The notes under the pieces were generated by a model, which saw nothing but the letters and a program-made list of their open reading frames with translations, had not been told where the DNA came from and searched no databases. This document shows positions 32,203-59,339 of a stretch of DNA of 64,000 nt, in pieces. A program made the translations under genes and the position numbers. Source of the DNA: Chlorobiota bacterium (GTDB lineage Bacteria; Bacteroidota; Ignavibacteria; Kapaibacteriales; UBA961); NCBI GenBank assembly GCA_039810485.1, contig JBDHXA010000005.1, positions 1,192 to 65,191 on the forward strand. The letters are read 5' to 3'. Each line of letters starts with the position of its first letter. Positions within the stretch are counted from its first letter, which is position 1.

Positions 32203-32236
32203 AACCAAGTTATGTATAATATATAAATAAAAAAAT

Positions 32237-33523: not shown

Positions 33524-33547
33524 TATCTATTTAGAAAGTAAAAAATT

Positions 33548-34975: not shown

Positions 34976-34988
34976 AGGAAACAATACA

Positions 34989-35843
34989 ATGGAAAATTCA
35001 ATTTATACAATGGGCATTGATGTTGGCGGCAGTTATGTTAAAACTGTTCTTATGCGCTATAATAAAGAGAGCGGACAACATCAATTAGTAGACAAACAAA
35101 CAGAAAAAATCAGAAAAAGAAATCCTAAAGATGTGGCTCACGACTCCATCGAAATGATTCTAGAACGCAATAATCTCAATTATGACAAGGATATTGCCTA
35201 TTTAGCTTCGACTGGAGAAGGCGAAATGGTCGAGAGAAAAACAGGACATTTCTACAGCATGACAACTCACGCTCGTGGCGGTGTCTTTTTCCATCCCGGC
35301 TCAAAAACAGTTGTTGATATGGGCGGCTTGTATGTTCGCGCAATTAAAATTGACGAACGCGGCAAAGTTCTGGATTATAAAATGACCGGTCAATGCGCCT
35401 CTGGTTCCGGACAGTTCATTGAAAATATATCACGATATCTTGGTTTGGCGGTAGAGGAAGTAGGAGATATTTCCATGCAAGCCGACAATCCCGAAGTTCC
35501 ATCAGGCATTTGTGCTGTTTTAGCAGAGACCGATGTTATTAACATGGTGTCCAAAGGAGCTTCTACACCCAATATAATCAAAGGCATTAATATATCTATC
35601 GCGCAAAGAGTTGTTAAACTTTTAAGCTCTCTAAAAGCAGAGTCGCCGATTATGTTGGTTGGAGGCATGGGCATGAATAAAGGAATGATCCAAGCTATTG
35701 AAGAGGTTGCTTCAGAGAATAAAAAAAGCAAACTTGAGTTTGTGTCGCATCCCGATGCAATCTTTTCAGGGGCTATCGGAGCTGCATTGTGGGGCGGCTA
35801 TCGCTATTATGTGCTTAAAGAAAAAGAAAAGCAAGCAGCATAA
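34989..35843 (+). CDS. BadF/BadG/BcrA/BcrD-type ATPase, short form (BcrD/BadG-like)
   Basis: 284 aa with GIDVGGSYVKTVLM and CASGSGQFIE motifs. Confidence 0.7.
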   Translation: MENSIYTMGIDVGGSYVKTVLMRYNKESGQHQLVDKQTEKIRKRNPKDVAHDSIEMILERNNLNYDKDIAYLASTGEGEMVERKTGHFYSMTTHARGGVFFHPGSKTVVDMGGLYVRAIKIDERGKVLDYKMTGQCASGSGQFIENISRYLGLAVEEVGDISMQADNPEVPSGICAVLAETDVINMVSKGASTPNIIKGINISIAQRVVKLLSSLKAESPIMLVGGMGMNKGMIQAIEEVASENKKSKLEFVSHPDAIFSGAIGAALWGGYRYYVLKEKEKQAA

Positions 35844-43992: not shown

Positions 43993-45051
43993 ATGAAAAA
44001 ATTACAACAATGGCAAATGACTGAACTGAAAGCTGACTTCAAGTTGGTTGAGTCAGAAATACCTTCGCTTAAAGAAGGCGAAGCTTTGATAAAAGTGGCC
44101 GGATGCGGCGTATGTCATACCGATCTAAGCTTTTGGCACGACGGAGTGCGAACAAAGAAAGAAATGCCTTTGACCCTAGGGCATGAAATCAGCGGAACTG
44201 TCATTGACGGTCCTAACCATTTGAAAGATAAGAATGTTATCATTCCCGCCGTGCTGCCTTGCGGCGACTGCGAACTATGCAATAAAGGCAGGAGCAATAT
44301 GTGTCAGAATCAATTAATGCCGGGCAATGACTTCCACGGAGGTTTCGCATCGCATATCGTGGTGCCGCACAAATTTTTGTGCCCTGTTCCTGATGCTGTT
44401 TTGCAGAAATATAAATTAGAGGAATTGGCTGTAATAGCCGACGCCATTTCAACTCCGTATCAGGTTTTAAAAAAATCAGAATTAGAAAAAGGTGATTTAG
44501 CTATATGTATTGGTGTTGGTGGTGTAGGAGTGTATGGTGCTCTGATAGCAAAAATCATGGGTGCAAAAGTGTTGGCTATTGACATCAACGATGAAAAGTT
44601 AGAGAAGGCAAAGAACAACGGTATTCATGCCACTCTCAATTCAAAAGGAATGGATACCAAGGAAGTTAAAGCCAAAGTAAAAGAAATTGCGAAAGAATTG
44701 GGCGCACCGAAGTATGGCTGGAAAATTTTTGAATTTTCTGGCACAACACCAGGCCAAGAACTAGCGTTCAATCTTTTAGCCTTTACATCAACTCTAAGTA
44801 TAGTTGGCTTCACAATGAGTAAATTAGAGCTCAGATTAAGCAACCTTATGGCTTTTGATGCGAAAATTATCGGTACTTGGGGTTGCAAGCCCGAACTCTA
44901 CGCAGAAGTTGTTGATTTGATTTCATCAGGCAAATTGGATATTAAAGATTTCGTACAAATATTTCCTATGAGTAAAATCAATGAAGTATTTCAAAACACT
45001 TTAGCACATAAATACACCAAGCGTTCTGTATTAATTCCAGATTTCAATTAA
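43993..45051 (+). CDS. Zinc-dependent medium-chain alcohol dehydrogenase (Had-like candidate)
   Basis: 352 aa with GCGVCHTDLSFW and GHEISG Zn-ligand motifs and a Rossmann GVGGVGVYG motif. Confidence 0.85.
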   Translation: MKKLQQWQMTELKADFKLVESEIPSLKEGEALIKVAGCGVCHTDLSFWHDGVRTKKEMPLTLGHEISGTVIDGPNHLKDKNVIIPAVLPCGDCELCNKGRSNMCQNQLMPGNDFHGGFASHIVVPHKFLCPVPDAVLQKYKLEELAVIADAISTPYQVLKKSELEKGDLAICIGVGGVGVYGALIAKIMGAKVLAIDINDEKLEKAKNNGIHATLNSKGMDTKEVKAKVKEIAKELGAPKYGWKIFEFSGTTPGQELAFNLLAFTSTLSIVGFTMSKLELRLSNLMAFDAKIIGTWGCKPELYAEVVDLISSGKLDIKDFVQIFPMSKINEVFQNTLAHKYTKRSVLIPDFN

Positions 45052-45074
45052 ATAAAAAATATTAAACAATAGAA

Positions 45075-46178
45075 ATGGAAGCACTAAAAAATCATAACAT
45101 AGTAGAAGGGTATCAATACACCGACATTCTTTTTGAAAAAAGACCTTGTTTAAGCACAGATGGAACACATGTTGAAGGTTTATACAATGCTTGGATTATC
45201 ATCAATAATCCCAAGCAATATAACTCTTATACCACCAAGGCGGTAAAAGAAGTAATTCTTGCCTTTGGCGAAGCATCCAATGACAGAAGCGTGGTTGCAG
45301 TCGTATTTACCGGCGCGGAGGACAAAGCATTTTGCACAGGTGGAAATACAAAGGAATATGCAGAATATTATTCCGGCAATCCGCAGGAATATTCGCAATA
45401 CATGCGTTTATTCAACGATATGGTATCGGCTATTCTGAAATGTGAAAAGCCGGTAATCGCTCGTGTAAACGGGATGAGAATTGGTGGCGGTCAAGAAATT
45501 GGGATGGCTTGTGATTTTACGGTAGCAAGTGATTTGGCTCGTTTTGGTCAAGCAGGACCGAAGCACGGAAGTGCCGCTATTGGCGGAGCAACAGACTTTC
45601 TGCATTTGTTTGTCGGGGTGGAAAGGGCAATGTATTCGCTCTCTTTGTGTGAGCCATGGACAGCCCATCAAGCTTTGAACTTTGGATTGATTACAGACAT
45701 TGCACCTGCATTGAAAGTGGATGGAAAATTTATTCCGAATCCATTGGTAAACATTGAAAAATATGCTGATGAATATGGCAGGGTAATTTTTGGAACAATG
45801 AAAATAGGCGATGAATTAGCAAAAGGAAAAGAGTTGATGGCAAAAGGTGAAATTGATTTGTCTAAACTAGATGAAGTTGTAAATCAGTTGATTGCCAAAC
45901 TGTTGCATACTTTTCCGAATTGTTTGAGTAAAACACTTTCAGAGGTTCGTAAGAAAAAATTAGAGCATTGGGACAAAAACAAAGAAAGTAGTCGTGAATG
46001 GCTTGCATTGAATATGATGTCAGAAGCGAAGGCAGGATTCAGAGCCTTCAATTACGGACCCAAAAATGATAGAGAAGTGGACTTCATAAAACTTCGTCAG
46101 TTGTTGGCAGAAGGACACGAATGGAATGATGATTTGCACCACGCTATTTCTCCACAATTTAAAACAGAAAACGTATAA
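45075..46178 (+). CDS. Long crotonase-family enzyme (enoyl-CoA hydratase/hydrolase; Oah/BamA-like by size)
   Basis: 367 aa. Crotonase fold (VVAVVFTGAEDKAFCTGGN) with a ~100-aa C-terminal extension. Confidence 0.6.
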   Translation: MEALKNHNIVEGYQYTDILFEKRPCLSTDGTHVEGLYNAWIIINNPKQYNSYTTKAVKEVILAFGEASNDRSVVAVVFTGAEDKAFCTGGNTKEYAEYYSGNPQEYSQYMRLFNDMVSAILKCEKPVIARVNGMRIGGGQEIGMACDFTVASDLARFGQAGPKHGSAAIGGATDFLHLFVGVERAMYSLSLCEPWTAHQALNFGLITDIAPALKVDGKFIPNPLVNIEKYADEYGRVIFGTMKIGDELAKGKELMAKGEIDLSKLDEVVNQLIAKLLHTFPNCLSKTLSEVRKKKLEHWDKNKESSREWLALNMMSEAKAGFRAFNYGPKNDREVDFIKLRQLLAEGHEWNDDLHHAISPQFKTENV

Positions 46179-46180
46179 TT

Positions 46181-46954
46181 ATGGAAAAGATTAAACTTAG
46201 TTATTCGCATAATAATACGGTTGCCAATATTGTTTTGAATGACGGTAAAGGCAATGTCTTGGACAATATAATGATGTTAGAACTATTGGATTGTTTTGAG
46301 GAGTTTAAAAAGAACAAAAACCTAAAATTAATTACTTTTCAGGGCGAAGGCAAACATTTTTCTTTTGGTGCAAGCGTGGAAGAGCATACTAAAGAAAATG
46401 CGGGAATGATGTTGAAAACTTTCCATAAAATATTTTTTACATTGATGGATCTCAATATTCCAACAATGGCAAAAATTTCCGGTCAGTGTTTGGGAGGCGG
46501 TATGGAATTAGCTGTTTTCTGTCATTTTTTATTTGCCGATAAAACAGCCAAAATGGGACAGCCGGAGATTGTTTTAGGAGTTTTTCCGCCGCCGGCATCC
46601 ATCATTTTGCCAGAAAAAATTGGTTTGTCGAGAGCAGAAGAACTATTGCTTACAGGCAGAAGCATAAATGCAGAAGAAGCGCTAAGATTTGGCTTGGTTC
46701 ACAATGTATTCGATGACAAAGAAACGTTAAACAACGGAGCTAACGAATGGATCGAAAAGAATATTCTGCCAAAAAGCGCGTCTACGATTCAATTTGGAGT
46801 GAAGGCGGCTCGTACAAAATTTAATGATATTTTATCCAAAAATTTACCAAAATTAGAACAGATCTATACCCACGAGTTGATGGAAACCAAAGATGCCAAC
46901 GAAGGCATCAGCGCATTTTTGGAGAAAAGACAGCCGGCTTGGGTGAATGAATAA
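46181..46954 (+). CDS. Enoyl-CoA hydratase (crotonase family; Dch-like by size)
   Basis: 257 aa with the oxyanion-hole region GQCLGGGMELAVFCHFLFADKTAKMGQPE. Confidence 0.75.
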   Translation: MEKIKLSYSHNNTVANIVLNDGKGNVLDNIMMLELLDCFEEFKKNKNLKLITFQGEGKHFSFGASVEEHTKENAGMMLKTFHKIFFTLMDLNIPTMAKISGQCLGGGMELAVFCHFLFADKTAKMGQPEIVLGVFPPPASIILPEKIGLSRAEELLLTGRSINAEEALRFGLVHNVFDDKETLNNGANEWIEKNILPKSASTIQFGVKAARTKFNDILSKNLPKLEQIYTHELMETKDANEGISAFLEKRQPAWVNE

Positions 46955-46969: not shown

Positions 46970-48796
46970 ATGATTATAGATAGCGCAGTTATAAAATTTG
47001 CAGGCGATTCCGGCGACGGAATGCAATTGGCAGGTACATTATTTACTGACAATGTTGCACAAATGGGCAATGCCATCGCAACATTCCCCGATTTTCCTTC
47101 TGAAATAAGAGCGCCGCAAGGAACATTAGCCGGTGTATCCGGCTTTCAGATCCATTTTGGCGCAACAAACGTGCATAGTCCAGGCGATGCGCCAGATGTA
47201 TTGGTTGCCATGAATCCTGCCGCATTGAAAGCTAATATTCATAATTTGAAAGCGAATTGCTTAGTATTGGTTGATGGCGATTCATTTGGCAAAAGAGATG
47301 TTGAAAAAGCTGGCTTTACAAGCAACCCATTGGAAGATAACTCGCTTAGCGGATACAAGACTGTTGCTGCACCAATAACATCGCTTACGAAAACGGCGGT
47401 GGCCGATTTAGGGCTTGACAATAAATCAGCCGACAGATGCAAGAATATGTTTACACTCGGCATGATTCTATGGCTTTTCAATGAACCGCTCGACTATACA
47501 GTCAATTTTTTTGAGCAGAAGTTTAAAAAAAATCAGATTATTGGCGAGGCAAATAAAAGAGCATTAAAGGCGGGATATAATTATGCTTTGACAGCCGAAA
47601 TCATAAAATCGTCATATAAGGTGATGCCGGCGCAAAAAACTCCAGGAACGTATCGGAATATGACGGGAAATCAGGCGGCAGCATGGGGATTCATGGCTGC
47701 GGCCGAAAAAGCAGGAAAGCTGCTGTTTCTTGGTTCTTATCCGATTACGCCAGCAACGGACATAATGCAAGAAATTGCTAAGCATAAATGGTCTGGCGCA
47801 AGAGTATTTCAAGCGGAAGATGAAATAGCTGGAATTTGTTCTGCCATCGGCGCTGCTTTTGCAGGAAACATCGCTATAACCACCACTTCCGGTCCTGGCA
47901 TGGCTCTCAAAACTGAAGCTATTGGCTTGGCAGTAATGACAGAAATGCCAATCGTAATTGTGAATGTGCAAAGAGGCGGGCCGAGTACTGGCTTGCCAAC
48001 CAAAACCGAGCAAAGCGATTTAATGCAGGCAGTATGGGGAAGAAACGGCGAAAGCCCTGTGGCTGTATTGGCTGCAAGCACTCCTTCGGATTGCTTTGAT
48101 TTCGCTTATGAAGCTGTCCGTATAGCTGTGGAACACATGACGCCGGTAATACTATTGAGCGAGGGTTATCTTGGCAATGGTGCTGAGCCATGGAAAATAA
48201 AGAAATTGGCAGAATTGCAGGAAATTAAGCCTCGAACTATTGAAACTTACGTTCCTGACTGGAAACCGTATAATCGCGAAGCCGATAAACTTGCGCGTTA
48301 TTGGGTTGCGCCCGGAGTTGCCGGAATGCAGCATCGCATCGGCGGATTGGAAAAAGACGAATTTACAAGTGGCGTATCGCACAACCCCAAAAACCATGAA
48401 AATATGGTAAGTATAAGGCAGGAAAAAATTAATAAAATAGCAGATTATATTCCGTTGCAGAAAATAAAAGGAAAAAATGCAAAAAAACTGCTTGTTATCG
48501 GCTGGGGAGGGCAATTCGGAATTTTACTTGGTGCCGTAAAAGAATTGCAAAATGAAGGGCTGGATATTGCGCTTGCTCATTTTAATTATATTAATCCTCT
48601 GCCAAAAAATACGGCAGAAATATTTGGAAAATTTGAAAAAATTCTCGTTTGTGAATTAAACAAAGGTCAGTTTGCCAATTATTTGCGGGCAGTGTTGCCA
48701 CAGTTTGCATACGAGCAATATAATAAAGTTCAGGGGTTGCCTTTTACTATAAAAGAATTAAAAGAAAAGTTTACAAAAATACTATCTGAAATATAG
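46970..48796 (+). CDS. korA: 2-oxoacid:ferredoxin oxidoreductase, fused gamma/alpha subunit
   Basis: 608 aa. N-terminal gamma-domain motif AGDSGDGMQLAG, followed by an alpha domain. Confidence 0.85.
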   Translation: MIIDSAVIKFAGDSGDGMQLAGTLFTDNVAQMGNAIATFPDFPSEIRAPQGTLAGVSGFQIHFGATNVHSPGDAPDVLVAMNPAALKANIHNLKANCLVLVDGDSFGKRDVEKAGFTSNPLEDNSLSGYKTVAAPITSLTKTAVADLGLDNKSADRCKNMFTLGMILWLFNEPLDYTVNFFEQKFKKNQIIGEANKRALKAGYNYALTAEIIKSSYKVMPAQKTPGTYRNMTGNQAAAWGFMAAAEKAGKLLFLGSYPITPATDIMQEIAKHKWSGARVFQAEDEIAGICSAIGAAFAGNIAITTTSGPGMALKTEAIGLAVMTEMPIVIVNVQRGGPSTGLPTKTEQSDLMQAVWGRNGESPVAVLAASTPSDCFDFAYEAVRIAVEHMTPVILLSEGYLGNGAEPWKIKKLAELQEIKPRTIETYVPDWKPYNREADKLARYWVAPGVAGMQHRIGGLEKDEFTSGVSHNPKNHENMVSIRQEKINKIADYIPLQKIKGKNAKKLLVIGWGGQFGILLGAVKELQNEGLDIALAHFNYINPLPKNTAEIFGKFEKILVCELNKGQFANYLRAVLPQFAYEQYNKVQGLPFTIKELKEKFTKILSEI

Positions 48797-48797
48797 A

Positions 48798-49817
48798 ATG
48801 GAAACTGTATCATACTCGTACAAACCAAAGGATTATGCGAGTGATCAAGAAGTTAAATGGTGCCCGGGTTGCGGGGATTATGCCATTATTAATGCTGTGC
48901 AAAAAGCATTTTCTGAATTAAATTTAAAAAAAGAAGACACAGCGATTATTTCAGGTATAGGATGCTCGTCAAGATTTCCATATTATATGGATACATTCGG
49001 TTTCCATACTATTCACGGTAGGCCTGCCGCTGTTGCAACCGGCGTCAAATTGGCAAATCCTCGTTTAGATGTATGGATTGTCAGCGGCGATGGAGATTCT
49101 CTCGCAATAGGAGGAAATCATTTTATACATTTGATAAGAAGAAATATAAATGTAAATTTATTGCTGTTTAATAATGAAATATATGGATTAACCAAAGGGC
49201 AGCACTCGCCAACAACTAAAAAAGATGTTTTAACAAAATCTGCACCATTTGGAACAATTGAAACCCCGTTTAATGTGGGTGAGCTAACGCTTGGAGCGCA
49301 AGGACAATTTTTTGCGCGCGTTCCTGACACCGATGTGAAATTAATGACCAAAGTATTCGTAGAAGCCGAAAAACATAAAGGAACATCCATCGTGGAAGTG
49401 CTACAAAATTGCGTGATATTTAATGACAACACTCACGAGTTTATAACGGCCAAAGAAAACCGCTTGGATAATCAAATAATTCTGGAACATGGCAAACCCA
49501 TGCTTTTCGGAGCAAACAACAGCAAAGGGCTTCGGTTGAACGGACTTGAAATTGAAGTCGTAACAATTGGAGAAAATGGCATTGTTGAAGAAGATTTGCT
49601 TGTGCATGACGCTTATGCAAAATCTTCTGCATTGCATAGAATGTTAATACAAATGAAAGCGCCAGAGTTCCCTGTTGCAATGGGCGTTATCAGAAATACT
49701 TCTGCACCGGTTTTTGACGAAGATTTTCACGAACAAATAAATCAAGGAAAAAATACGCCAAAAATTCATTCTGTAGATGACATGTTTTTTAGTGGAAATA
49801 CATTTGAAGTTAAATAA
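48798..49817 (+). CDS. korB: 2-oxoacid:ferredoxin oxidoreductase beta subunit (TPP/Fe-S)
   Basis: 339 aa. CPGCGDY motif and TPP-binding GDGD region. Confidence 0.9.
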   Translation: METVSYSYKPKDYASDQEVKWCPGCGDYAIINAVQKAFSELNLKKEDTAIISGIGCSSRFPYYMDTFGFHTIHGRPAAVATGVKLANPRLDVWIVSGDGDSLAIGGNHFIHLIRRNINVNLLLFNNEIYGLTKGQHSPTTKKDVLTKSAPFGTIETPFNVGELTLGAQGQFFARVPDTDVKLMTKVFVEAEKHKGTSIVEVLQNCVIFNDNTHEFITAKENRLDNQIILEHGKPMLFGANNSKGLRLNGLEIEVVTIGENGIVEEDLLVHDAYAKSSALHRMLIQMKAPEFPVAMGVIRNTSAPVFDEDFHEQINQGKNTPKIHSVDDMFFSGNTFEVK

Positions 49818-49831: not shown

Positions 49832-50179
49832 ATGGCTATTAAAATCACTGACGACTGTATCAACTGCGGAGCTTGCGAGCCCGAATGTCCAAACAATGCT
49901 ATCTATGCAAATGCCGAACCTTGGACAATGGCAGAAGGAACAAATATCACATCCGATTTTACTTTGTTTACTGGTAAAACGATTGATGCTTTTGAAGAAC
50001 AAGAGCCAATATCTGACGAGTTTTATTACATCGTAACAGATAAGTGCACAGAATGTGTAGGTTTTCACGATGAACCGCAATGTGCTACAGTTTGCCCGGT
50101 AGATTGTTGTTTGCCTGATCCTGATCATCAAGAAACAAGAGAAAAATTGGAAGAAAAGCAGCGGCGACTGCATGAATAA
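49832..50179 (+). CDS. 2[4Fe-4S] ferredoxin with internal insertion
   Basis: 115 aa. CINCGACEPECP and CTECVGFHDEPQCATVCP cluster motifs. Confidence 0.85.
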   Translation: MAIKITDDCINCGACEPECPNNAIYANAEPWTMAEGTNITSDFTLFTGKTIDAFEEQEPISDEFYYIVTDKCTECVGFHDEPQCATVCPVDCCLPDPDHQETREKLEEKQRRLHE

Positions 50180-50804: not shown

Positions 50805-51611
50805 ATGGAAAATGAAAATTCGCATAATGTGCAAAGAATTAAATCGGCTCTTTGCATCATTGTAGAAACAAAAGGTTCAACGCCTCGCAAAGCGGGAACT
50901 AAAATGCGAGTATACGAAAATCGTAAAATTGAAGGGAGCATTGGCGGCGGAGCATTCGAAAAAAAAGTTGTAGAAAACGCCGTTATTCAAATCGAAAAAG
51001 GAATTCCCTGTTTGTTTGAGCATCATTTATTGCAAGAGCATGAGATGTGTTGCGGAGGAAGCGTAAAAGTGTATATTGAACCAGAACTGCAAAAAAATCA
51101 TTTAATCATTTTTGGCGCAGGTCATGTTGGACAGGAATTGGCGAAACAGGCTTTGGGAGCAGAGTTTGAAGTGAGTGTCTATGATGATAGAGAAGAATTC
51201 ATTCAGCAAATTACAGATGTAAAAATTGATATTCAATGCTTGGATTTTGCTGATGCTTTGAAACAAATTTCATTTAATGAAAACACGTATATAGCTATCC
51301 TCACTTACCGACACGATATAGACAGGGCGTTACTTCGATATTGTTTGCGAAAAGATAGAGCCTATCTCGGATTTATTGGTAGCCAACGAAAGATATTAGT
51401 TACAAGGAAAATGATGCTACAAGAAGGCATTGCAAGTGAAGAAGAATTGGATAAAGTGGATATGCCGATAGGGTTGAACATTGGTGCTGAAACGCCTTTT
51501 GAAATTGCTGTGAGTATCATTGCTAAAATGATAGCAGTAAAAAATAAAGAGCGAGTGAATACGATAAATCAAATTAAAGACATAGAACAATGCATAAAAG
51601 AACAGCCATAA
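50805..51611 (+). CDS. xdhC: XdhC/CoxI-family Moco-insertion accessory protein
   Basis: 268 aa. Rossmann-like IIFGAGHVGQELAK. Confidence 0.75.
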   Translation: MENENSHNVQRIKSALCIIVETKGSTPRKAGTKMRVYENRKIEGSIGGGAFEKKVVENAVIQIEKGIPCLFEHHLLQEHEMCCGGSVKVYIEPELQKNHLIIFGAGHVGQELAKQALGAEFEVSVYDDREEFIQQITDVKIDIQCLDFADALKQISFNENTYIAILTYRHDIDRALLRYCLRKDRAYLGFIGSQRKILVTRKMMLQEGIASEEELDKVDMPIGLNIGAETPFEIAVSIIAKMIAVKNKERVNTINQIKDIEQCIKEQP

Positions 51612-52312
51612 TCACAGGAGCAGCAAAGGGAATCGGAAAATCCATTGCACAAAGGCTTTCACAAGAAGGCTACTATTGTGTGTTGGTGGATGTGGATGAA
51701 GCGAATGGAAAAATGCTCGCTCAGGAATTAGGAAATAATGCTTCTTATTACAAATGTGATATCAGTAATGAAACAGAAGTGAAAGCACTTTTTGCTTCTT
51801 TGGAAAGTGTAGATGTTTTGGTCAATAATGCAGGTATCATTCGTGATAATATGATATGGAAAATGTCGGTAGAAGATTTTGATTTGGTTACAGACATTAA
51901 CCTGAAAGGAACATGGATGATGTGTCGTGAAGCAGCAATAAAAATGAAAGAACAAAAGAGTGGGAGAATTGTAAACATTGCTTCACGTGCTTGGTTAGGA
52001 AATCCGGGTCAGTCTAACTATGCGGCTTCAAAAGCCGGTGTGGTAAGCCTTACAAGGGTTTTAGCTTTGGAGTTAGGGAAATATGGTGTTTTGGTCAATG
52101 CCATTGCACCCGGTTTGATAGACACTCCTTTGGCACAAGGGTTAGCCAATGAAGTGAGAGAAAAACTCATTCAGGCGCAGCCGACAAAAAGCATGGGGAC
52201 ACCCGAAGATGTGGCGCAGGTTGTCGCTTTTCTTTGTGATGTAAAGACACAATTCATAACAGGCCAAACGATTTATGTGGACGGAGGAAAAAGTATAGGT
52301 GCCGGATTATAA
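51590..52312 (+). CDS. Short-chain dehydrogenase/reductase (FabG-like)
   Basis: 240 aa. TGAAKGIGKSIA cofactor motif and catalytic YAASKAG. Confidence 0.85.
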   Translation: MHKRTAIITGAAKGIGKSIAQRLSQEGYYCVLVDVDEANGKMLAQELGNNASYYKCDISNETEVKALFASLESVDVLVNNAGIIRDNMIWKMSVEDFDLVTDINLKGTWMMCREAAIKMKEQKSGRIVNIASRAWLGNPGQSNYAASKAGVVSLTRVLALELGKYGVLVNAIAPGLIDTPLAQGLANEVREKLIQAQPTKSMGTPEDVAQVVAFLCDVKTQFITGQTIYVDGGKSIGAGL

Positions 52313-52323: not shown

Positions 52324-55116
52324 ATGAGAAAGATAAATTTAAAAATCAACAATAAACCCTTTACGTTTCTGGCAGAAGATTCAGAAATGCTATCTCATGT
52401 AATACGTGAGCGTGCAGGGCTTACAGGAACTAAAGTAGGATGCAGTCAAGGTAGTTGCGGTGCGTGTACGGTCATTGCAGATGGTGAACCTGTGCTGAGT
52501 TGCATCACGCCTGCATTCCGATTTGATAATGCTGAAATACAAACAGTAGAAGGTCTTGCAGAAAATGGAACTCCTGATTTATTACAGGAATTATTTGTAC
52601 AAAAAGGTGCTATCCAATGTGGTTTTTGTACTCCCGGAATGGTATTGACTGCTAAAGATTTTGTGGATAAGAACCCCGATGCATCTACGCAAGATATTAA
52701 AGAGGCTTTATCAGGAAACCTTTGCCGTTGCACCGGTTACAAGAAAATTATTGAAGCCGTAACAGAATATACCGAACTTAAAAAACAAGGAGTTGAACAT
52801 TTACCGCCTGTTGAAGAAAACAGTAAAATTATCGGTATTGGCAGACCCTATATTGAAGCAGAAAAGAAGGTATTGGGCAAAGCACTTTATGCAGATGATT
52901 TGCAATTTAGAAATCTACTTTACTGCAAATTTTTAAGAAGTACACACGCTCATGCACTCATCGAAAACATTGATATTTCAGAAGCAAAGGCAATGGAAGG
53001 TGTAGTTTATGTTGCGATAGGAAATGATTTGCCGGAGAAGTTTGGTGTGTTGCCGGTATCTCATGATGAAACCGCTATGGCTATTGAAAAGACACGCTAT
53101 TTTGGAGAAATAGTGGCAGCCGTAGCAGCAGAAAGTTTTGAAATTGCCGAAGCTGCTTGCAAGAAAATAAAAGTAAAATACCAACCTCTCAGAACCTATT
53201 TCAACATTGAAGATTCAATTCATGATGTGGGAGATAATGCTAAGATTCATGAGCATTGCAAGTTCAACAATAACATTCATAAAAAGGCAGAATTGCGTTT
53301 TGGAAATCAAGAAGAAGCTTTTAAAAATTCGGATATTATTTCTGAAATGGAATTTGATGTAGAAGGCGTTTCACATGCTTTTACAGAACCCCATTCAGCA
53401 ACAGCCTATTGGGACGAAAATGGATTAACGATTCATACGGCTACACAAGTTCCACATTATTTGCATAGAGCCTTAGCCAAAGTAATGCAAGTGCCTTTGA
53501 GTAGAGTGCGTGTTATTAAACCCTATGTGGGTGGCGGTTTTGGTGGTAAGAGTGATCCTTTTCCTCACGAAATGATTATTTCTCACATTGCCCGAAAAAC
53601 AGGCAGACCGGTTCGTTCTACCTTTACAAGAGAAGAAGTTTTTTTGAGTAACCATGGAAGGCATCCTTCTAAGTTCAAAATGAAAATCGGTGCTGACAGC
53701 AATGGTATGTTGAAAGTGTTAGATGCTGATGTAGCTATTGATGGCGGTGCTTATGGCAGTTTTGGAGTAGTTACTTCCTACTACAATGGCGTGCTATTGC
53801 AAGCTCCTTATGAGATAAAAGATTTTGGTTTTAAAACCTATCGTGTTTATACCAACAAACCTCAATGCGGTGCAATGCGTGGGCATGGTGCGGTGAATAC
53901 ACGCTTTGCAGCCGAGTCGTTGATAGATGATATTGCACATCGCTTGAACATAGACCCTTGCGAGATACGGTTAAAAAATTTCTACAAAGAAAATGTGATT
54001 ACCATCGGGCATTTCAGAATCACATCCAACGGCAGTAGAATGGCGTTGCAGCAAGTGATGGAGCGTTCCGGTTGGAAAGAAAAAAGAGGAAATCTTCCTG
54101 CAGGGCGAGGCATTGGTGTGGGTTGTGGCTTCTTTATAAGCGGCAGTGCATTGCCTATTATTTGGAATGAATATCCGCAAACTGTGGTGCATTTGAAATT
54201 GGATTTTGATGGTCGGATTTTGATTTCTTCCGGTGCAAGTGATATTGGTCAAGGAAGCGATACGATGCTGGCAATGGTTGTGGCTGAAACAATGGGAATT
54301 GATATGCAAAAAGTGTTTGTGTTGGCTGCCGATACTTTACTCACACCTGTTGATTTGGGAAGCTATTCCAGTCGGGTAACTTTTATGTGTGGCAATGCAG
54401 CAAAGCAAGCAGCAGAGAAACTAAGAGCAGAAATTTTAGAAGCTGTCTCCAAGCGAAAAGAAATGGCAATAGAAGAATTATACATCGAAAATAGCCGTGT
54501 TCGTTCTAATGATAATAGTGTTAATCTGGAATGGTTAGAAGCGGTTGATATGGCAACGGCTCATCGAGGTGCATTGACGGTAAGTGGCAATTATATTTCA
54601 CCCAAATTAGGAGGAGATTTCAAAGGCTCTGGAGCGGGTTTAAGTCCTTCCTACAGCTTTGGTGCTTGCATTGCAGAAGTGAATGTAAACAAACAAACCG
54701 GACAAGTGGAAGTGCTAAATGTTTGGGGTGCGCATGACTGCGGAAAAGCCCTGAATCCATTGGCAGTGGAAGGACAATTAGAAGGTTCATGGCACATGGG
54801 AATAGGGCAGGCATTGAGCGAAGAAATGAAATATTATGATGGACTTCTGCTTAATAATAATTTCTGCGATTATAAAATTCCTACCACTTTAGACACACCC
54901 GAAATTGATACTAATATCATTGAGTCAGGCGACCCTGAAGGACCTTATGGAGCAAAAGAATGTGGTGAAGGTGCGCTGCATCCGGTCATTCCGGCTATTG
55001 CTAATGCTATCTTTAATGCTTGTGGAGTGAGGATAACAAAATTGCCAATTAAAGCAGATGAAGTGTTAGCACAGATAAAATCTAATATGAAAACACAAAT
55101 GAATAAGGTTGATTAA
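52324..55116 (+). CDS. Xanthine-dehydrogenase-family molybdoenzyme, fused [2Fe-2S] (gamma-like) + molybdopterin-binding (alpha-like) subunit; 4-hydroxybenzoyl-CoA reductase HcrC-HcrA-like
   Basis: 930 aa. N-terminal ~160 aa carry two 2Fe-2S motifs (GCSQGSCGACTV, CGFCTPGM, CRCTGY). The remainder is an aldehyde-oxidase/XDH large-subunit region with the Moco motif GGGFGGK. Confidence 0.85.
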   Translation: MRKINLKINNKPFTFLAEDSEMLSHVIRERAGLTGTKVGCSQGSCGACTVIADGEPVLSCITPAFRFDNAEIQTVEGLAENGTPDLLQELFVQKGAIQCGFCTPGMVLTAKDFVDKNPDASTQDIKEALSGNLCRCTGYKKIIEAVTEYTELKKQGVEHLPPVEENSKIIGIGRPYIEAEKKVLGKALYADDLQFRNLLYCKFLRSTHAHALIENIDISEAKAMEGVVYVAIGNDLPEKFGVLPVSHDETAMAIEKTRYFGEIVAAVAAESFEIAEAACKKIKVKYQPLRTYFNIEDSIHDVGDNAKIHEHCKFNNNIHKKAELRFGNQEEAFKNSDIISEMEFDVEGVSHAFTEPHSATAYWDENGLTIHTATQVPHYLHRALAKVMQVPLSRVRVIKPYVGGGFGGKSDPFPHEMIISHIARKTGRPVRSTFTREEVFLSNHGRHPSKFKMKIGADSNGMLKVLDADVAIDGGAYGSFGVVTSYYNGVLLQAPYEIKDFGFKTYRVYTNKPQCGAMRGHGAVNTRFAAESLIDDIAHRLNIDPCEIRLKNFYKENVITIGHFRITSNGSRMALQQVMERSGWKEKRGNLPAGRGIGVGCGFFISGSALPIIWNEYPQTVVHLKLDFDGRILISSGASDIGQGSDTMLAMVVAETMGIDMQKVFVLAADTLLTPVDLGSYSSRVTFMCGNAAKQAAEKLRAEILEAVSKRKEMAIEELYIENSRVRSNDNSVNLEWLEAVDMATAHRGALTVSGNYISPKLGGDFKGSGAGLSPSYSFGACIAEVNVNKQTGQVEVLNVWGAHDCGKALNPLAVEGQLEGSWHMGIGQALSEEMKYYDGLLLNNNFCDYKIPTTLDTPEIDTNIIESGDPEGPYGAKECGEGALHPVIPAIANAIFNACGVRITKLPIKADEVLAQIKSNMKTQMNKVD

Positions 55117-56065
55117 AATTAAAATTATGGAAACATTGCAAGCAACATATATCAAAGTGAAGTCGGTAGCAGAAGCTATTGAAAAAATAAATGAGATACC
55201 CAATACCATTTTTGTGGCAGGTGGTACCGATGTGTTTGTCAATAAGCAGCAAGGAAATATTGATGCAGACTGTTATCTTGATATTTCCGGAATAGACGAA
55301 TTGAAAACTGTAACTATTCACTCTGACAGATTAGAAATTGGTGCGACTGTAACTTTAGAAAAGATTTCAAAATCAAAAGATGTAGAAAAATATTTCCCGA
55401 CATTAATAGAAGCGGCATTGGCAGTAGCAACTCCTGTCATCCGTAAGACTGCAACTATTGGAGGCAATATTTTGTGCGAAAATCGTTGTTTCTATTATAA
55501 TCAAAGCGACTGGTGGCGTGAGTCTGTTGGGCATTGCCTGAAATGCAACGGAGATATTTGTATCGCATCCGGAGGAAAGAAAAACTGCTTTTCAAAATTA
55601 GTAAGTGATACGGCACCCGTTTTAATAGCTTATGGTGCTTCCGTAAATTTAATTAACGCAAGTGGAGAAAGGAAAGTGCCTTTAGAAAGCTTATACACCG
55701 GTGATGGCGTGGACTCTGTCAATTTAGATAAAAGGACTTTAGTAAAATCTATCGAGATTCCTTTTAGCGATAAGAAAGTAATTTTTAAAAAACTCAGACC
55801 CAGAAAAACATTAGATTTTACTTCATTGACAACAGCAGTTTCCCACAATGCCAATGATAATTTGAGAATTGTTGTTGGTGGTGTTGATCCAAAGCCAATA
55901 ATTGTTGAAGGCAATTTGAAAGAAATAGCAGTAGATACATTAGTAACAACAGCAGTGAAAAAACCTAAGGCAGTAGAGAATGATTTTTATTCACGCACTT
56001 ACAGAAAAGAAATGATTAGAGTATTTGTGGAAGAAAGCCTTTTTCTATTAAAAATTAAAAATTAA
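55109..56065 (+). CDS. FAD-binding subunit of the XDH-family enzyme with a Cys-rich insertion (HcrB-like)
   Basis: 318 aa. CO-dehydrogenase-flavoprotein-like FAD domain (FVAGGTDVFV). Insertion CENRCFYYNQSDWWRESVGHCLKCNGDIC has five Cys, reminiscent of the extra [4Fe-4S] loop of the 4-hydroxybenzoyl-CoA reductase beta subunit. The start may instead be Met at 55127. Confidence 0.8.
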   Translation: MIKIKIMETLQATYIKVKSVAEAIEKINEIPNTIFVAGGTDVFVNKQQGNIDADCYLDISGIDELKTVTIHSDRLEIGATVTLEKISKSKDVEKYFPTLIEAALAVATPVIRKTATIGGNILCENRCFYYNQSDWWRESVGHCLKCNGDICIASGGKKNCFSKLVSDTAPVLIAYGASVNLINASGERKVPLESLYTGDGVDSVNLDKRTLVKSIEIPFSDKKVIFKKLRPRKTLDFTSLTTAVSHNANDNLRIVVGGVDPKPIIVEGNLKEIAVDTLVTTAVKKPKAVENDFYSRTYRKEMIRVFVEESLFLLKIKN

Positions 56066-56122: not shown

Positions 56123-56632
56123 ATGAACAAAGTAGTAGAAGTATTAACTCAAGAACACGAAAACATTAAACGAGTAATTGACAATACACACAAGCTTGTT
56201 GCAGATATACTTTCAGGAAATGCAGAATTAAATGTAATGCATGAGCGTATTGAATTTTTTAGAAAATATGCAGATGGTTATCATCATCACAAAGAAGAAG
56301 AAGTGTTGTTTCCTGAAATGATAAAAAGGAATGAAATACTTGAATTTGGCGTTATCCATGAGATGCTTCAAAACCACGAGGACTTTAGAGAGATGCTGGC
56401 AGAGTTAGAAGAATTAGTAAATGACGGAGATGCTGAAGGTGCAAAGAAAAAATTTGAAGCTTATGCAGAAGCCTTATTGGAGCATATTGCTGTAGAAGAC
56501 GAAGAAGTATTTCAAATAGCTGAAACCATTATGAGCGAAGACGAATTGCTTACTGTTTTATATCGTTTTGAAGACTGCGACAGAGAGTTGGGAATGGATG
56601 AAAAAAAGGAGTGGGAGGAAAAGATAGAGTAA
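56123..56632 (+). CDS. Hemerythrin-like domain protein
   Basis: 169 aa with HENIKR, YHHHKEEE, HEMLQNHEDFRE and EHIAVEDEE metal-ligand-like motifs. Confidence 0.55.
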   Translation: MNKVVEVLTQEHENIKRVIDNTHKLVADILSGNAELNVMHERIEFFRKYADGYHHHKEEEVLFPEMIKRNEILEFGVIHEMLQNHEDFREMLAELEELVNDGDAEGAKKKFEAYAEALLEHIAVEDEEVFQIAETIMSEDELLTVLYRFEDCDRELGMDEKKEWEEKIE

Positions 56633-56689: not shown

Positions 56690-57598
56690 GTGATTAATAT
56701 AACTCATAAAAGCCCAACACTACGTAAAGCAACAGCGCAAGCGATTGTGAAAGTTAGTAAGGAAGAAACTATCCAAGCGATTGTTGAAAAGCGCGTGCCA
56801 AAGGGCGATGTTTTTGAAATGGCAAAGACTGCTGGTCTGTTCGCCGTTAAGCGCACCAGCGATATAATTCCCGATTGTCATCCATTGCCAATCGAATTTA
56901 CTGCTGTACGCTATGAAATCAAAGAATTAGAATTGCATATAGAGATGGAAGTGCACACTATTTACAAAACAGGCGTTGAAGTCGAGGCAATGCATGGCGC
57001 TTCTGTTGTAGCTCTCACTATATATGATATGCTCAAACCCATTGACAAAGGCATTGAAATAAACTCCATAAAGCTAATAAAAAAATCAGGCGGAAAATCC
57101 GATTTTATCGACAAATTCAGGAAAGATCTGAAAGCTGCAGTAATCGTATGCTCTGATAGTATTTCTGCAGGGCAAAAAGAAGATAAAGCAGGCAGGGCAA
57201 TTATAGAAAAGCTCAATAGTTGCGATATAGCAGTTTCGGATTATATCGTAATACCGGACGATTTGGATGAAATTAAAAATAGAGTTATATCTCTGGCGCC
57301 TCAGAACGATATTATTATCCTTACCGGAGGAACTGGTCTTTCGCCGCGCGATATGACGCCTGAAGCACTGAAACCGCTGTTAGACAGAGAAATACCCGGG
57401 GTGATGGAAGCAGCAAGAAATTATGGACAAGAACGAACTCCTTATTCCATGTTGTCAAGAGGAGTTGCAGGGCTGATAGGAAATACTTTAACGCTCGCTT
57501 TGCCCGGATCAACAAAAGGCGCACAAGAGTCAATGAATGCTTTATTTCCGGCAATTTTGCATATTTTTAAAGTTATAAACGGGAGACGACACGAATAA
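56690..57598 (+). CDS. Bifunctional MoaC (cyclic pyranopterin monophosphate synthase) / MogA-MoaB-like protein
   Basis: 302 aa. N-terminal MoaC-like half. C-terminal MoCF-binding domain with TGGTG motif ([13 protein letters not shown]). Confidence 0.8.
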
Positions 57599-58024: not shown

Positions 58025-58039
58025 TTCAGTGGGGTTGCT

Positions 58040-58441: not shown

Positions 58442-58770
58442 GTAAATAAGAACAAAGAACAATTCGATTGTAATATATCTGAAATTGACAAGCATGAATA
58501 AATGATGCAATAGGTTGAAATATAAACTATGACACGATAAGCATTAAAGAGCAGCAATTGAACTCTATGACTGAAGAATTCATGTTGTCTACCTATATAC
58601 ACCAGTTATGCGTCACCCTATCCTACCACTCGTATAACCATCCACATTAAAATAATTTGACAAAACCTTCTTAAATGATTTGTCCGATAAAAATTATATC
58701 GTAATATTGCATTATTAAAATTAAAGAGATTGTCGGAGCAACTAAAACAGACCATTTTACACATAAATAA

Positions 58771-59302: not shown

Positions 59303-59339
59303 AAATGATTTTACAAAAACAAACCTTTCATCCAAAGAT

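Follow-up and report, generated by a model that had tools for sequence, protein, structure and literature searches.

A Two-Gene Molybdenum Enzyme of the 4-Hydroxybenzoyl-CoA Reductase Type in a Benzoyl-CoA Pathway Cluster of a Chlorobiota Bacterium

Closest Described Systems

[quoted passage not shown] HcrABC has the same cofactor-binding modules as the enzyme described here, namely Mo-MCD, two [2Fe-2S] clusters, FAD, and, within the FAD subunit, a further loop for a [4Fe-4S] cluster. No other solved structure comes near it as a match to our alpha and beta modules. The genomic partners of the Thauera system, a ferredoxin, KorAB, and class I benzoyl-CoA reductase (BCR), are also those of our cluster, and the direction of electron flow that we predict is the same. 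However, HcrABC is encoded by three genes and our enzyme by two, with gamma and alpha in one polypeptide; our loop has two additional invariant cysteines (C117 and C140) relative to HcrB; and the host belongs to the Bacteroidota, not to the Proteobacteria, with a function that is predicted. The donor of 4-HBCR is reduced ferredoxin, and its [4Fe-4S] cluster sits in the extra loop (PMC12771579; PMC11760930).

Other systems share parts of this design. The aldehyde oxidoreductase of Desulfovibrio gigas (MOP; PDB 1VLB/1SIJ) has the same single-chain layout of two [2Fe-2S] clusters, linker, and Mo domain and aligns co-linearly with residues 17 to 700 of our fused protein; however, it is oxidative, lacks both an FAD subunit and a [4Fe-4S] cluster, and is far less similar (321 bits over its full length). 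Escherichia coli PaoABC and a Methylobacillus aldehyde oxidase (PDB 5G5G, 5Y6Q) have a four-cysteine [4Fe-4S] loop at the same fold position, but PaoABC works oxidatively and its similarity to our enzyme is much lower. PaoABC is periplasmic and carries a Tat signal. Four cysteines bind the [4Fe-4S] cluster in the FAD subunits of PaoB-type aldehyde oxidoreductases (preprint 10.64898/2026.07.15.738685). The urolithin C dehydroxylase of Enterocloster (Ucdh/UcdCFO) likewise belongs to the xanthine oxidase family and dehydroxylates phenols reductively, taking off the hydroxyl that stands para to an electron-withdrawing carbonyl, but it consists of three separate subunits with 32.7% identity to 4-HBCR, has no [4Fe-4S] loop, and uses NADH, not ferredoxin, and a substrate that is not a CoA ester (PMC12771579, PMC11760930).

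The Fused Gene and Its Partner

Both the 930-aa open reading frame and the FAD-subunit reading frame downstream of it are present where the sequence-only reading had placed them, and comprise the following features.

52324..55116, + strand: fused hcrCA-like gene for 930 aa, with a gamma module (two [2Fe-2S]) followed by an alpha module (for Mo-MCD)
52324..52767, + strand: gamma-like module spanning aa 1-148, including both [2Fe-2S] cysteine motifs
52768..52827, + strand: gamma-to-alpha linker of ~20 residues (YTELKKQGVEHLPPVEENSK), without an extra domain
52828..55113, + strand: alpha-like Mo-cofactor module, aa 169-930
55127..56065, + strand: hcrB-like FAD subunit, 312 aa, Pfam FAD_binding_5
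55475..55597, + strand: Cys-rich insertion of the FAD subunit, aa 117-157 (CENRCFYYNQSDWWRESVGHCLKCNGDICIASGGKKNCFSK), with predicted [4Fe-4S] ligands C121, C137, C145, and C154

The claimed fusion of a two-[2Fe-2S] module to a Mo subunit with a GGGFGGK motif is borne out by Pfam domains (Fer2/Fer2_2 at aa 3-147; the a/b hammerhead, Ald_Xan_dh_C, with MoCoBD_1 and MoCoBD_2 at aa 185-859) and by motifs: C40-x4-C45-x2-C48-x11-C60 and C99-x2-C102...C134-x-C136 in the gamma-like module, and TATQVP (with its conserved glutamine), GGGFGGKS, AMRGHG, and GAKECGEG in the alpha-like module. In a residue-level alignment AMRGHG and the glutamine of TATQVP are common to HcrA, and the glutamate of GAKECGEG aligns with HcrA Glu726. 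The alignment with HcrC stops at residue 147 and that with HcrA begins at residue 169; the fusion is a plain head-to-tail join of two polypeptides that are, as the earlier reading held, separate in Thauera, where they form chains C and A of 1RM6. Such a join sets a fixed stoichiometry, and we expect it to leave the route of the electrons as it is. We found no twin-arginine motif at the N-terminus of the 930-aa protein and therefore predict a cytoplasmic enzyme.

The FAD subunit, previously given as 318 aa, most likely starts at ATG 55127 (312 aa) rather than TTG 55109 (318 aa), because the public gene call (312 aa) and the N-termini of homologues agree on the shorter form. Its AF2 model (pTM 0.83) has 1RM6_B as top fold match; the low-pLDDT segment is 118-157, and the cysteine loop is modeled at pLDDT <50, too low to confirm a cluster geometry. 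The quoted cysteine-rich string (CENRCFYYNQSDWWRESVGHCLKCNGDIC) is present, but Pfam profile mapping and the low-pLDDT segment give, relative to loop-less FAD subunits, an insertion of ~40 residues (aa 117/118-157) rather than 29, and of the five cysteines quoted, C117 and C140 fall outside the ligand positions of HcrB in the alignment, whereas the fourth ligand equivalent, C154, was left out. The proposed correspondence with HcrB itself holds position for position: the insertion aligns without gaps to residues 122-155 of T. aromatica HcrB, with equal loop length and identical C-x15-C-x7-C-x8-C spacing, so that C121, C137, C145, and C154 correspond to HcrB Cys122/138/146/155. We presume these to be the [4Fe-4S] ligands of HcrB, a numbering that reportedly goes back to Unciuleac et al. 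2004; the conclusion is independent of it because all five HcrB cysteines of the region have counterparts here, one shifted by a residue. The four cysteines are invariant across 60 homologues and HcrB, as is a YNQ-x2-WWR motif of the beta subunit, and the loop cysteine pattern is retained in 119 of 120 homologues. A cluster-binding loop had been called the hallmark of 4-HBCR; this goes too far, as oxidative PaoB-type FAD subunits (5G5G_B, 5Y6Q_B) have one too. Their spacing, C-x9/11-C-x8-C-x18-C, differs, and the diagnostic feature is HcrB-type cysteine spacing rather than the presence of a loop.

Relationship to 4-HBCR

4-HBCR is the nearest match of the enzyme in every comparison. Among PDB structures the Mo domain scores 603 bits against HcrA (1RM6_A; next structure 247) and the FAD subunit 142 bits against HcrB (1RM6_B; next 67). 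Across 752 aa the Mo domain shares 41% of its residues with T. aromatica HcrA, and the FAD subunit is ~32% identical to HcrB in a multiple alignment. Neither of the outcomes that would have spoken against the sequence-only reading, a cysteine insertion out of register with the HcrB loop and a Mo domain grouping with aldehyde oxidoreductases or purine hydroxylases, was observed. In a neighbor-joining tree of 50%-identity representatives our Mo domain falls in one clade with HcrA; our lineage is a clade distinct from the Proteobacterial HcrA cluster. The gamma-like module matches HcrC residues 5-148 with 138 bits and has slightly higher scores to small subunits of nicotinate dehydrogenase and quinoline oxidoreductase; other small subunits thus match it at least as closely as HcrC does, which counts against a 4-HBCR assignment.

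The best NCBIfam models are the 4-HBCR equivalogs TIGR03194 for alpha (818 bits, cut-off 994.55; XdhA next at 559) and TIGR03195 for beta (214 bits, cut-off 404.55), and gamma scores 157 bits against the corresponding cut-off of 257.8. All three modules fall under these cut-offs, and the TIGR03194 cut-off is passed only by the HcrA cluster itself (1302 bits), all sister lineages scoring 771-960; orthology of function is therefore not guaranteed, and 4-hydroxybenzoyl-CoA is a predicted substrate.

Gene Neighborhood and Distribution

The window, by which we mean the whole 64-kb stretch of DNA analyzed, encodes the following neighbors of the reductase pair.

31012..35843, + strand: bcrC, bcrB, bcrA, and bcrD, for an ATP-dependent benzoyl-CoA reductase of class I (Thauera type), predicted to consume the product
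43993..46954, + strand: had, oah, and dch, for modified beta-oxidation and ring cleavage in the benzoyl-CoA pathway
46970..49817, + strand: korA and korB, two-subunit 2-oxoacid:ferredoxin oxidoreductase, which would regenerate reduced ferredoxin
49832..50179, + strand: Alvin/YfhL-type 2[4Fe-4S] ferredoxin, 115 aa with a ~32-residue insertion, the predicted electron donor
50200-50802, + strand: mocA-like cytidylyltransferase (TIGR03310, 104 bits, best match but below cut-off)
50805-51611, + strand: xdhC-like Moco insertion chaperone (Pfam XdhC_C, XdhC_CoxI)
51590..52312, + strand: SDR (FabG-like), 240 aa, Pfam adh_short_C2, directly upstream of the 930-aa gene
56123..56632, + strand: HHE hemerythrin-domain protein (Pfam PF01814), a conserved downstream neighbor
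56690..57598, + strand: bifunctional MoaC/MoaB of molybdenum cofactor biosynthesis (NF002947, 404 bits, cut-off 285)

The reductase pair and the genes for BcrCBAD, Had/Oah/Dch, KorAB, ferredoxin, MocA, and XdhC form one co-directional cluster with minimal gaps, and NarGHI is encoded upstream of it. We regard the cluster as a complete one for degrading aromatics anaerobically, and the host, an uncultured bacterium, as a likely nitrate respirer. Family cut-offs are exceeded by two bcr genes (TIGR02260, 661 bits; TIGR02261, 323 bits), two of the had/oah/dch genes (TIGR03201, 451 bits; TIGR03200, 595 bits), korAB (TIGR03710, 638 bits, cut-off 482.75), and the ferredoxin (NF033683, 100.6 bits, cut-off 86), which also matches 2FGO, 1BLU, and 1RGV. 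Below their cut-offs are TIGR02263 (417 bits, just under 421), TIGR02259 (409 bits, cut-off 578), TIGR03189 (224 bits, cut-off 292.5, the best match for its gene), and PorB_KorB (251.6 bits, cut-off 261.9). The mocA-like gene contrasts with a MobA-like gene at 27656. MocA-like, XdhC, ferredoxin, and KorAB genes do lie upstream of the pair as had been reported, and the SDR gene stands between xdhC and the fused gene; this SDR may serve the lower pathway as its 3-hydroxyacyl-CoA dehydrogenase. Within the window we recognized no benzoate or 4-hydroxybenzoate-CoA ligase, the sole AMP-binding enzyme being FadD-like, nor did we see an O-demethylase gene or any other peripheral gene.

Each of the 120 closest homologues is a fused protein of ~930 aa with both [2Fe-2S] motifs, and of the related genome loci that show the two domains, 72/72 have a single fused reading frame. 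Species genomes encoding the loop-bearing partner number at least 578, most of them Bacteroidota metagenome-assembled genomes (MAGs), and the fusion also occurs in Ignavibacteriales, Kiritimatiellia, and Acidobacteriota; many carriers are, by their record titles, MAGs from bogs, boreal lakes, and groundwater. The fusion, which had been presented as remarkable, is therefore the usual form throughout a very large lineage of Bacteroidota, common and already annotated, with JGI and NCBI records labeling such proteins 4-HBCR alpha (some homologues carry the NCBI label "aldehyde oxidase"). Among related loci of at least 17 kb, true benzoyl-CoA pathway genes lie within 10 kb at 29 of 47 and are absent from that distance at 18. 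KorAB/Fdx accompany the pair at 10 related loci and PFOR at 8; at 80 related loci we find SDR (51, often with a thiolase), HHE (39), XdhC (37), and MocA (36).

Proposed Function and Alternatives

The sequence-only reading of a ferredoxin-driven dehydroxylating reductase feeding BCR is supported in part, agreeing with the similarity to HcrA and HcrB and with the shared cluster; in view of the sub-cut-off scores and the lack of a recognizable aromatic acid-CoA ligase in the window, its substrate we infer from context. [quoted passage not shown] KorAB would oxidize 2-oxoglutarate and reduce the adjacent Alvin-type 2[4Fe-4S] ferredoxin, which would hand over electrons one at a time to a [4Fe-4S] cluster in the beta-subunit insertion, bound there by Cys121, 137, 145, and 154. 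From this cluster the electrons would run through FAD and both N-terminal [2Fe-2S] clusters of the 930-aa protein to Mo-MCD in its C-terminal module, the inverted electron flow known for Thauera 4-HBCR. At Mo-MCD the para-hydroxyl of 4-hydroxybenzoyl-CoA would leave as water, and the resulting benzoyl-CoA would pass to BcrCBAD and on to Dch, Had, and Oah, all from the same cluster, with nitrate, through NarGHI, as the likely terminal acceptor.

An enzyme of the same type and electron path may instead act on another para-hydroxylated aryl-CoA, such as protocatechuoyl-CoA, vanilloyl-CoA, or a different phenolic acyl-CoA that stems from lignin or humic matter, whose product would then enter the benzoyl-CoA pathway. 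We regard such a paralogous dehydroxylase as the less likely case: it is in keeping with the sub-cut-off modules, an identity to HcrA of just 41%, the separate clade, the missing ligase, the bog, boreal-lake, and groundwater carriers, and the loci (18/47) where BCR genes are not nearby, and Ucdh, a second reductive family member that acts on another phenolic compound, came to light only recently (PMC12771579). Set against it are a neighborhood that is consistently that of the benzoyl-CoA pathway, with no O-demethylase or peripheral genes seen in the window, and the Mo-site motifs common to our enzyme and HcrA; equally sub-threshold sister lineages are routinely annotated as 4-HBCR, which is annotation and not evidence.

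That the pair is a PaoABC-like or other oxidative Mo hydroxylase or aldehyde oxidoreductase lying near an aromatic cluster by coincidence is already disfavored and seems to us very improbable. Oxidative enzymes can have [4Fe-4S] FAD subunits, a fused PaoABC-like protein has been reported from Flavobacteriaceae (preprint 10.64898/2026.07.15.738685), and the "aldehyde oxidase" labels would fit; however, PaoB scores 56 bits where HcrB scores 142, PaoC scores 205 where HcrA scores 603, the cysteine spacing is of the HcrB and not the PaoB type, the FeS module has no Tat signal, and the genes are tightly embedded among, and recurrently linked to, benzoyl-CoA pathway and ferredoxin-reducing genes. 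We reject with near certainty the idea that an assembly error or frameshift created the fusion in an organism with separate hcrC and hcrA: the fused form is universal among the homologues and readable loci above, which come from independent assemblies and sources, and the 930-aa protein recurs, identical or at least 90% identical, in 13 cluster members.

The 4-HBCR-type pair is thus a molybdenum enzyme of a known kind, here encoded by two genes, and not a new kind of enzyme. A notable by-product of this analysis is the wide spread of the benzoyl-CoA pathway in Bacteroidota.

Domain architecture and sequence features of the enzyme

The genes considered here encode a two-subunit molybdoenzyme and lie one directly after the other on the forward strand.

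52324-55116, + strand: fused gamma-alpha gene, 930-aa protein (ORF; Pfam domains)
55127-56065, + strand: FAD subunit (beta), 312 aa from the more likely start, ATG 55127; FAD_binding_5

The 930-aa protein contains Fer2 and Fer2_2 domains at aa 3-147, which form the gamma module, followed by the a/b hammerhead, MoCoBD_1, and MoCoBD_2 domains of the alpha module (E-values of 2.5e-28, 1.4e-76, and 2.2e-72), all of which exceed the Pfam gathering scores. Both canonical [2Fe-2S] Cys motifs are present (aa 40-60 and aa 99-136), as is the sequence GGGFGGK. [quoted passage not shown] The conserved Gln and the catalytic Glu near the Mo center are residues of known function in the xanthine oxidase family. 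The second gene encodes a FAD_binding_5 domain (Pfam: PF00941, E-value of 7e-40), and a start at ATG 55127 agrees with both the public gene call and the N-termini of homologs, which makes 312 aa more likely than the 318 aa first assigned to this subunit. The two proteins and their maturation genes have the features of a xanthine oxidase family enzyme, namely a Mo module, two [2Fe-2S] motifs, a FAD subunit, the Gln and Glu residues, and MocA-like and XdhC genes nearby.

The gamma and alpha modules are a single chain, in contrast to the three separate subunits of HcrABC and HbaBCD. The stretch between the end of the HcrC-like alignment (aa 147) and the start of the HcrA-like one (aa 169) shows the join to be a plain linker of ~20 residues (YTELKKQGVEHLPPVEENSK) that brings no further domain. 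The fusion is therefore an architectural variant in which domains are neither lost nor gained, and the same FeS-linker-Mo layout occurs in the single-chain aldehyde oxidoreductase of D. gigas, which is co-linear with aa 17-700 of the query.

The Cys-rich loop of the beta subunit

A phmmer search of the PDB with the beta subunit returns HcrB as the best match (142 bits), followed at a distance by the FAD subunits of Methylobacillus aldehyde oxidase (67 bits) and E. coli PaoABC (PaoB, 56 bits). The query and HcrB align without gaps through a loop of equal length and share the spacing C-x15-C-x7-C-x8-C (query aa 121-154, HcrB aa 122-155). HcrB and the query family share, without variation, the four cysteines C121, C137, C145, and C154 as well as Y124-N-Q and W129-W-R, and the Cys spacing is kept in 119 of 120 closest homologs. 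The [4Fe-4S] ligands of HcrB are reportedly Cys122, 138, 146, and 155 (Unciuleac et al. 2004); however, our conclusion about the loop is independent of this numbering, because HcrB has only five cysteines in residues 25-308 (117, 122, 138, 146, and 155) and all five are matched in the query, one with an offset of a single residue. The alignment supports the presence in the query of the additional four-Cys loop typical of 4-HBCR, which is predicted to bind a [4Fe-4S] cluster.

The extent of this loop had been underestimated. Relative to FAD subunits without a loop, the insertion comprises ~40 residues (aa 117/118-157) instead of 29: 208 residues are mapped on 167 positions of the Pfam profile, the NCBIfam XdhB-type models end at aa 115, and the low-confidence segment of the AlphaFold2 (AF2) model spans aa 118-157. 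The Cys-rich string of 29 residues originally described is present but lacks the equivalent of the fourth ligand, C154. The AF2 model of the beta subunit has a pTM of 0.83, and its top fold matches are FAD subunits of the family. The loop itself has a pLDDT below 50, as is expected for a model built without a cluster, and the geometry of the four cysteines is not informative. Foldseek against the PDB ranks the Thauera subunit (1RM6_B) first, but all FAD subunits fall at TM-scores of 0.66-0.73, which adds little to the sequence evidence. The loop (55475-55597) also contains C117 and C140, which are invariant in 60 Bacteroidota homologs; neither has a positional equivalent in T. aromatica HcrB, which has Tyr at position 141 and a Cys117 that is offset by one residue.

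Relationship to 4-hydroxybenzoyl-CoA reductase

The Mo module alone matches HcrA with 603 bits (41% identity over 752 aa), whereas scores to other solved structures are much lower: quinoline 2-oxidoreductase, 247 bits; 6-hydroxypseudooxynicotine dehydrogenase, 233 bits; CoxL, 229 bits; glyceraldehyde oxidoreductase, 215 bits; and R. capsulatus XDH, 214 bits. The 4-HBCR alpha model TIGR03194 is the best NCBIfam model (818 bits), ~260 bits above the next, XdhA (559 bits). The query and HcrA also fall in one clade of a neighbor-joining tree, which was built from BLOSUM distances without bootstrap or other support values and is read for coarse grouping only. By these comparisons the query alpha module groups with HcrA and apart from CODH, the aldehyde oxidoreductases, and the purine and N-heterocycle hydroxylases. 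Neither a mismatch between the Cys insertion and the HcrB loop nor a placement of the Mo domain in another family was found.

All three modules score below the curated 4-HBCR equivalog cut-offs.

Scores of the query modules against NCBIfam 4-HBCR equivalog models
Alpha, TIGR03194: score 818.2, cut-off 994.55
Beta, TIGR03195: score 214.1, cut-off 404.55
Gamma, TIGR03193: score 156.9, cut-off 257.8

As a calibration of the alpha model, the cluster representative of Thauera HcrA scores 1302 and the other HcrA-like sub-lineages all lie at 771-960, whether they are fused or split. The gamma module shows no particular affinity to HcrC: it scores 161 bits against the nicotinate dehydrogenase small subunit, 151 bits against QorS, and 138 bits against HcrC, which may be due simply to the limited resolution of this small, conserved domain. 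Isofunctionality with 4-HBCR consequently rests on context and not on a curated threshold, and our literature searches found no biochemically characterized member of this lineage. We conclude that the query protein, as judged from sequence comparison, has 4-HBCR as its closest relative and is predicted to act likewise.

A close relationship to PaoABC was weighed against this assignment. PaoB-type FAD subunits also have a four-Cys loop; however, its spacing (C-x9-C-x8-C-x18-C in PaoB and C-x11-C-x8-C-x18-C in the Methylobacillus subunit, 5Y6Q_B) differs from that of the query. PaoA carries a Tat signal for its periplasmic location, and no twin-arginine motif occurs at the N-terminus of the 930-aa protein (MRKINLKINNKPFTF), in which the [2Fe-2S] domain begins at aa 3-4. 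On the scores, the Cys spacing, and the missing Tat motif, a PaoABC-like identity was rejected. PaoB-type enzymes nevertheless bear on how the loop is interpreted: they have a [4Fe-4S] cluster in the FAD subunit yet are oxidative (preprint 10.64898/2026.07.15.738685), which weakens the original argument that such a loop implies the reductive direction. The only other characterized reductive member of the family, urolithin C dehydroxylase (Ucdh), is without the loop and NADH-dependent (PMC12771579, PMC11760930).

Distribution of the gamma-alpha fusion

All 120 closest homologs (NCBI, JGI, ENA, and Logan assemblies; 68-100% identity) are ~930 aa in length and have both FeS motifs; members of the cluster at ≥90% identity include MBX2984784.1 and MCZ2131282.1. 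Beta-loop patterns, scanned against a single genome of each species, picked up relatives in at least 578 genomes. The best 80 of these are nearly all Bacteroidota metagenome-assembled genomes (Flavobacteriales, Chitinophagales, Saprospiraceae, Vicingaceae, and others); pathway clusters related to that of the window occur in many Bacteroidota assemblies of these four groups and also in an Ignavibacteriae assembly. In 72 of 72 loci in which both modules are visible, a single gamma-alpha ORF is followed directly by the beta gene. The uniformity of these homologs and loci rules out a frameshift or assembly artifact, and the fusion is real and not unusual. With the Mo domain alone as query, 10 of the best 150 matches are fused (1.84 billion representatives at 50% identity searched), and the HcrA-like clade of the neighbor-joining tree mixes fused with split forms. 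Ignavibacteriales, Kiritimatiellia, and Acidobacteriota have fused forms as well; two of these already bear the NCBI name "4-hydroxybenzoyl-CoA reductase subunit alpha", as do many Bacteroidota members in JGI. Literature searches returned nothing relevant on a fused HcrCA. The query is a new representative of an enzyme type that is already known, and it belongs to a very large, already annotated Bacteroidota lineage. The sequence-only reading was essentially right about the likeness of the enzyme and its genomic setting, but overrated both the fusion, which is common across this lineage, and how diagnostic the loop is.

Genomic context

The fused gene and the beta gene stand at the end of a long cluster of closely spaced genes with one common direction, which we list together with an upstream nitrate reductase locus.

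12667-22719: respiratory nitrate reductase locus with cytochrome c, NarG, NarH, a 234-aa ORF, NarI, hemerythrin, and a NarK-like MFS transporter
31012-35843, same strand as the fused gene: BcrC, BcrB, BcrA, and BcrD of benzoyl-CoA reductase (BCR); BcrB and BcrD above model cut-offs
35888-37636, same cluster: AMP-binding CoA ligase, 582 aa, FadD-type likeness
37627-40685, in the BCR cluster: lone HGD-D-family subunit (403 aa), then an ApbA::activase fusion (614 aa)
Same cluster, next in order: thiolase
41896-43986, same cluster: FadB-like protein, 696 aa
Same cluster: Had and Oah (both above cut-off) and Dch, by NCBIfam models
Same cluster: KorA (above cut-off) and KorB
49832-50179: Alvin/YfhL-type 2[4Fe-4S] ferredoxin, above cut-off
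50200 and 50805, same cluster: MocA-like gene and XdhC gene, then an SDR
After the beta gene, same cluster: hemerythrin, then MoaC/MoaB

The fused gene is associated on the same strand with genes of the benzoyl-CoA pathway (BcrCBAD, Had, Oah, and Dch) and with KorAB and a low-potential ferredoxin. The MocA-like, XdhC, ferredoxin, and KorAB genes described from the sequence are indeed all in the upstream cluster. For the genes at 50200 and 50805, TIGR03310 and XdhC are the best models, though both score below equivalog cut-offs; the XdhC Pfam domains exceed threshold. The ferredoxin matches 1BLU, 2FGO, and 1RGV, the last of which is the T. aromatica ferredoxin. It has 115 aa compared with ~80 for the Alvin/YfhL type and contains an insertion of ~32 residues (aa 30-61) between the first cluster motif and the remainder of the protein.

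Taken as a whole, 31012-57598 encodes a complete anaerobic benzoyl-CoA pathway of the Thauera type (BcrCBAD, Dch, Had, Oah, KorAB, Fdx, and the 4-HBCR-like enzyme) in the genome of an uncultured member of the Bacteroidia. A model search recognized no benzoate- or 4-hydroxybenzoate-CoA ligase within the window, and the only AMP-binding ligase of the cluster resembles the FadD type, unlike the models for those ligases. In the 614-aa fusion, aa 8-312 form an ApbA/PanE ketopantoate-reductase-like domain and aa 352-595 a BcrAD/BadFG-type activase ATPase, and the adjacent 403-aa subunit (2-hydroxyacyl-CoA dehydratase/BcrB-like) has no partner subunit in the BCR cluster. Orthologs of this pair, 50-70% identical, occur beside Dch/Oah or SDR/thiolase in seven of the related loci (L020, L022, L028, L035, L038, L073, and L079), and the pair may act in the lower pathway as a radical enzyme activated by ATP. 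The 696-aa protein has a weak match to a 3-hydroxyacyl-CoA dehydrogenase NAD-binding domain (aa 52-193) and a divergent crotonase domain (aa 434-670), a domain order opposite to that of FadB; this protein probably serves beta-oxidation in the pimeloyl-CoA branch. Two proteins with HHE hemerythrin domains are encoded, one directly 3' of hcrB (56123-56632) and one at 20170-20838. The former may be a sensor of O2 or NO or a protector of oxygen-sensitive Fe-S/Mo enzymes.

In the upstream locus NarG matches TIGR01580 above cut-off (1461 bits), and the 234-aa ORF at the position of NarJ has no family match. This locus is followed by a full set of Moco biosynthesis genes (MoaA, MoeA, a MobA-like gene, MoeB/ThiF, and MoaE). 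Of the nucleotidyltransferases, a MocA-like one (MCD) is near xdhC and hcr and a MobA-like one (MGD, 27656) near nar and moa, which fits the xanthine oxidase family and DMSO reductase family enzymes each having their own cofactor branch. The nar locus points to nitrate-linked degradation of aromatics.

GC content drops from ~0.40 in the cluster to 0.28-0.33 downstream, at 58000-64000. The genes of this stretch look unconnected with the cluster and encode a MORN-repeat protein, a histidine kinase, an ECF-type sigma factor, DUF6789, and a cytochrome P460-like protein, so that a catabolic island may end here. A promoter and terminator scan of 50-60 kb found 35 and 7 candidates compared with shuffled expectations of 35.4 and 6.2; it is silent on operon boundaries because the sigma-70 consensus misses Bacteroidota promoters.

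Conservation of the gene neighborhood

The best 80 of the at least 578 genomes were examined 10 kb to either side of the locus. Their neighbor genes include SDR (51/80), hemerythrin (39/80), XdhC (37/80), and MocA (36/80). True benzoyl-CoA pathway genes (BcrA-D, Had, Oah, or Dch) are found at 38 of the 80 loci and at 29 of the 47 loci that are at least 17 kb long, with cross-hits from a HadB-like gene and the activase fusion excluded from the BcrB, BcrA, and BcrD tblastn counts. The other 18 long loci have no pathway genes within the 10-kb flanks, a distance that undercounts the association, given that BcrB is 22 kb from hcrB in the window. KorAB/Fdx genes occur at 10 loci and a 1175-aa PFOR at 8. 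By guilt by association, the recurrent neighborhood strongly supports a function in benzoyl-CoA metabolism that draws on a low-potential ferredoxin as donor. The PFOR is a NifJ-type pyruvate:ferredoxin oxidoreductase that flanks hcrCA-hcrB at locus L015 (6761-14629), where nearby BCR genes are absent; the same arrangement, sometimes with an adjoining DUF302 protein, is found at L018, L019, L024, L037, L053, L063, and L075, which suggests an alternative ferredoxin-reducing partner.

Proposed function and implications

Reading cluster occupancy, electron donor, direction, and substrate by homology onto the observed modules, ligands, motifs, and neighbors, we propose that KorAB would reduce the ferredoxin, which would in turn reduce the predicted [4Fe-4S] cluster of the beta loop. 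Electrons would then be carried by FAD, the two [2Fe-2S] clusters of the N-terminal module, and Mo-MCD to 4-hydroxybenzoyl-CoA, which would lose its para-hydroxyl group while the thioester stabilizes the intermediate, and BcrCBAD would receive the benzoyl-CoA. The sole effect expected of the fusion is that the gamma and alpha modules would be fixed at 1:1. For the dehydroxylation by 4-HBCR, Birch-type one-electron and two-electron mechanisms have both been proposed (PMC12771579).

We also considered that the fused Bacteroidota lineage is a distinct ferredoxin-driven aryl-CoA dehydroxylase with substrates of its own, e.g., lignin- or humic-derived para-hydroxy or dihydroxy benzoyl-CoAs, and regard this as unlikely. 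Were it true, the xanthine oxidase family would gain a third functional type among its reductive enzymes, which, together with its conserved partners (SDR, hemerythrin, and class I BCR), would mark hundreds of uncultured Bacteroidota species from lakes, bogs, groundwater, and wastewater as unrecognized degraders of phenolics under anoxic conditions. For enzymology the finding matters little. The preferred, 4-HBCR-like assignment gives the query the same cofactor set, ligand pattern, and predicted electron path as the well-studied Thauera enzyme, and the fusion is a simple architectural variant of which databases already contain many examples. Heterologous expression might be easier with a two-polypeptide 4-HBCR.

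The finding is more useful for ecology. At least 578 species-level genomes encode the loop-bearing beta partner, and in the best 80 a class I BCR is often alongside. A 2024 survey reported bcr/bam genes as absent from 37 representative genomes of the FCB superphylum (PMC10936416), and we found no paper in the literature searched that ties these Bacteroidota families to the benzoyl-CoA pathway. The breadth of benzoyl-CoA pathway genes in Bacteroidota, seemingly unrecognized in that literature, is the more interesting by-product of this analysis. If these clusters are active, the Bacteroidota would be a guild that has been overlooked in the anoxic, nitrate-linked degradation of aromatic compounds.
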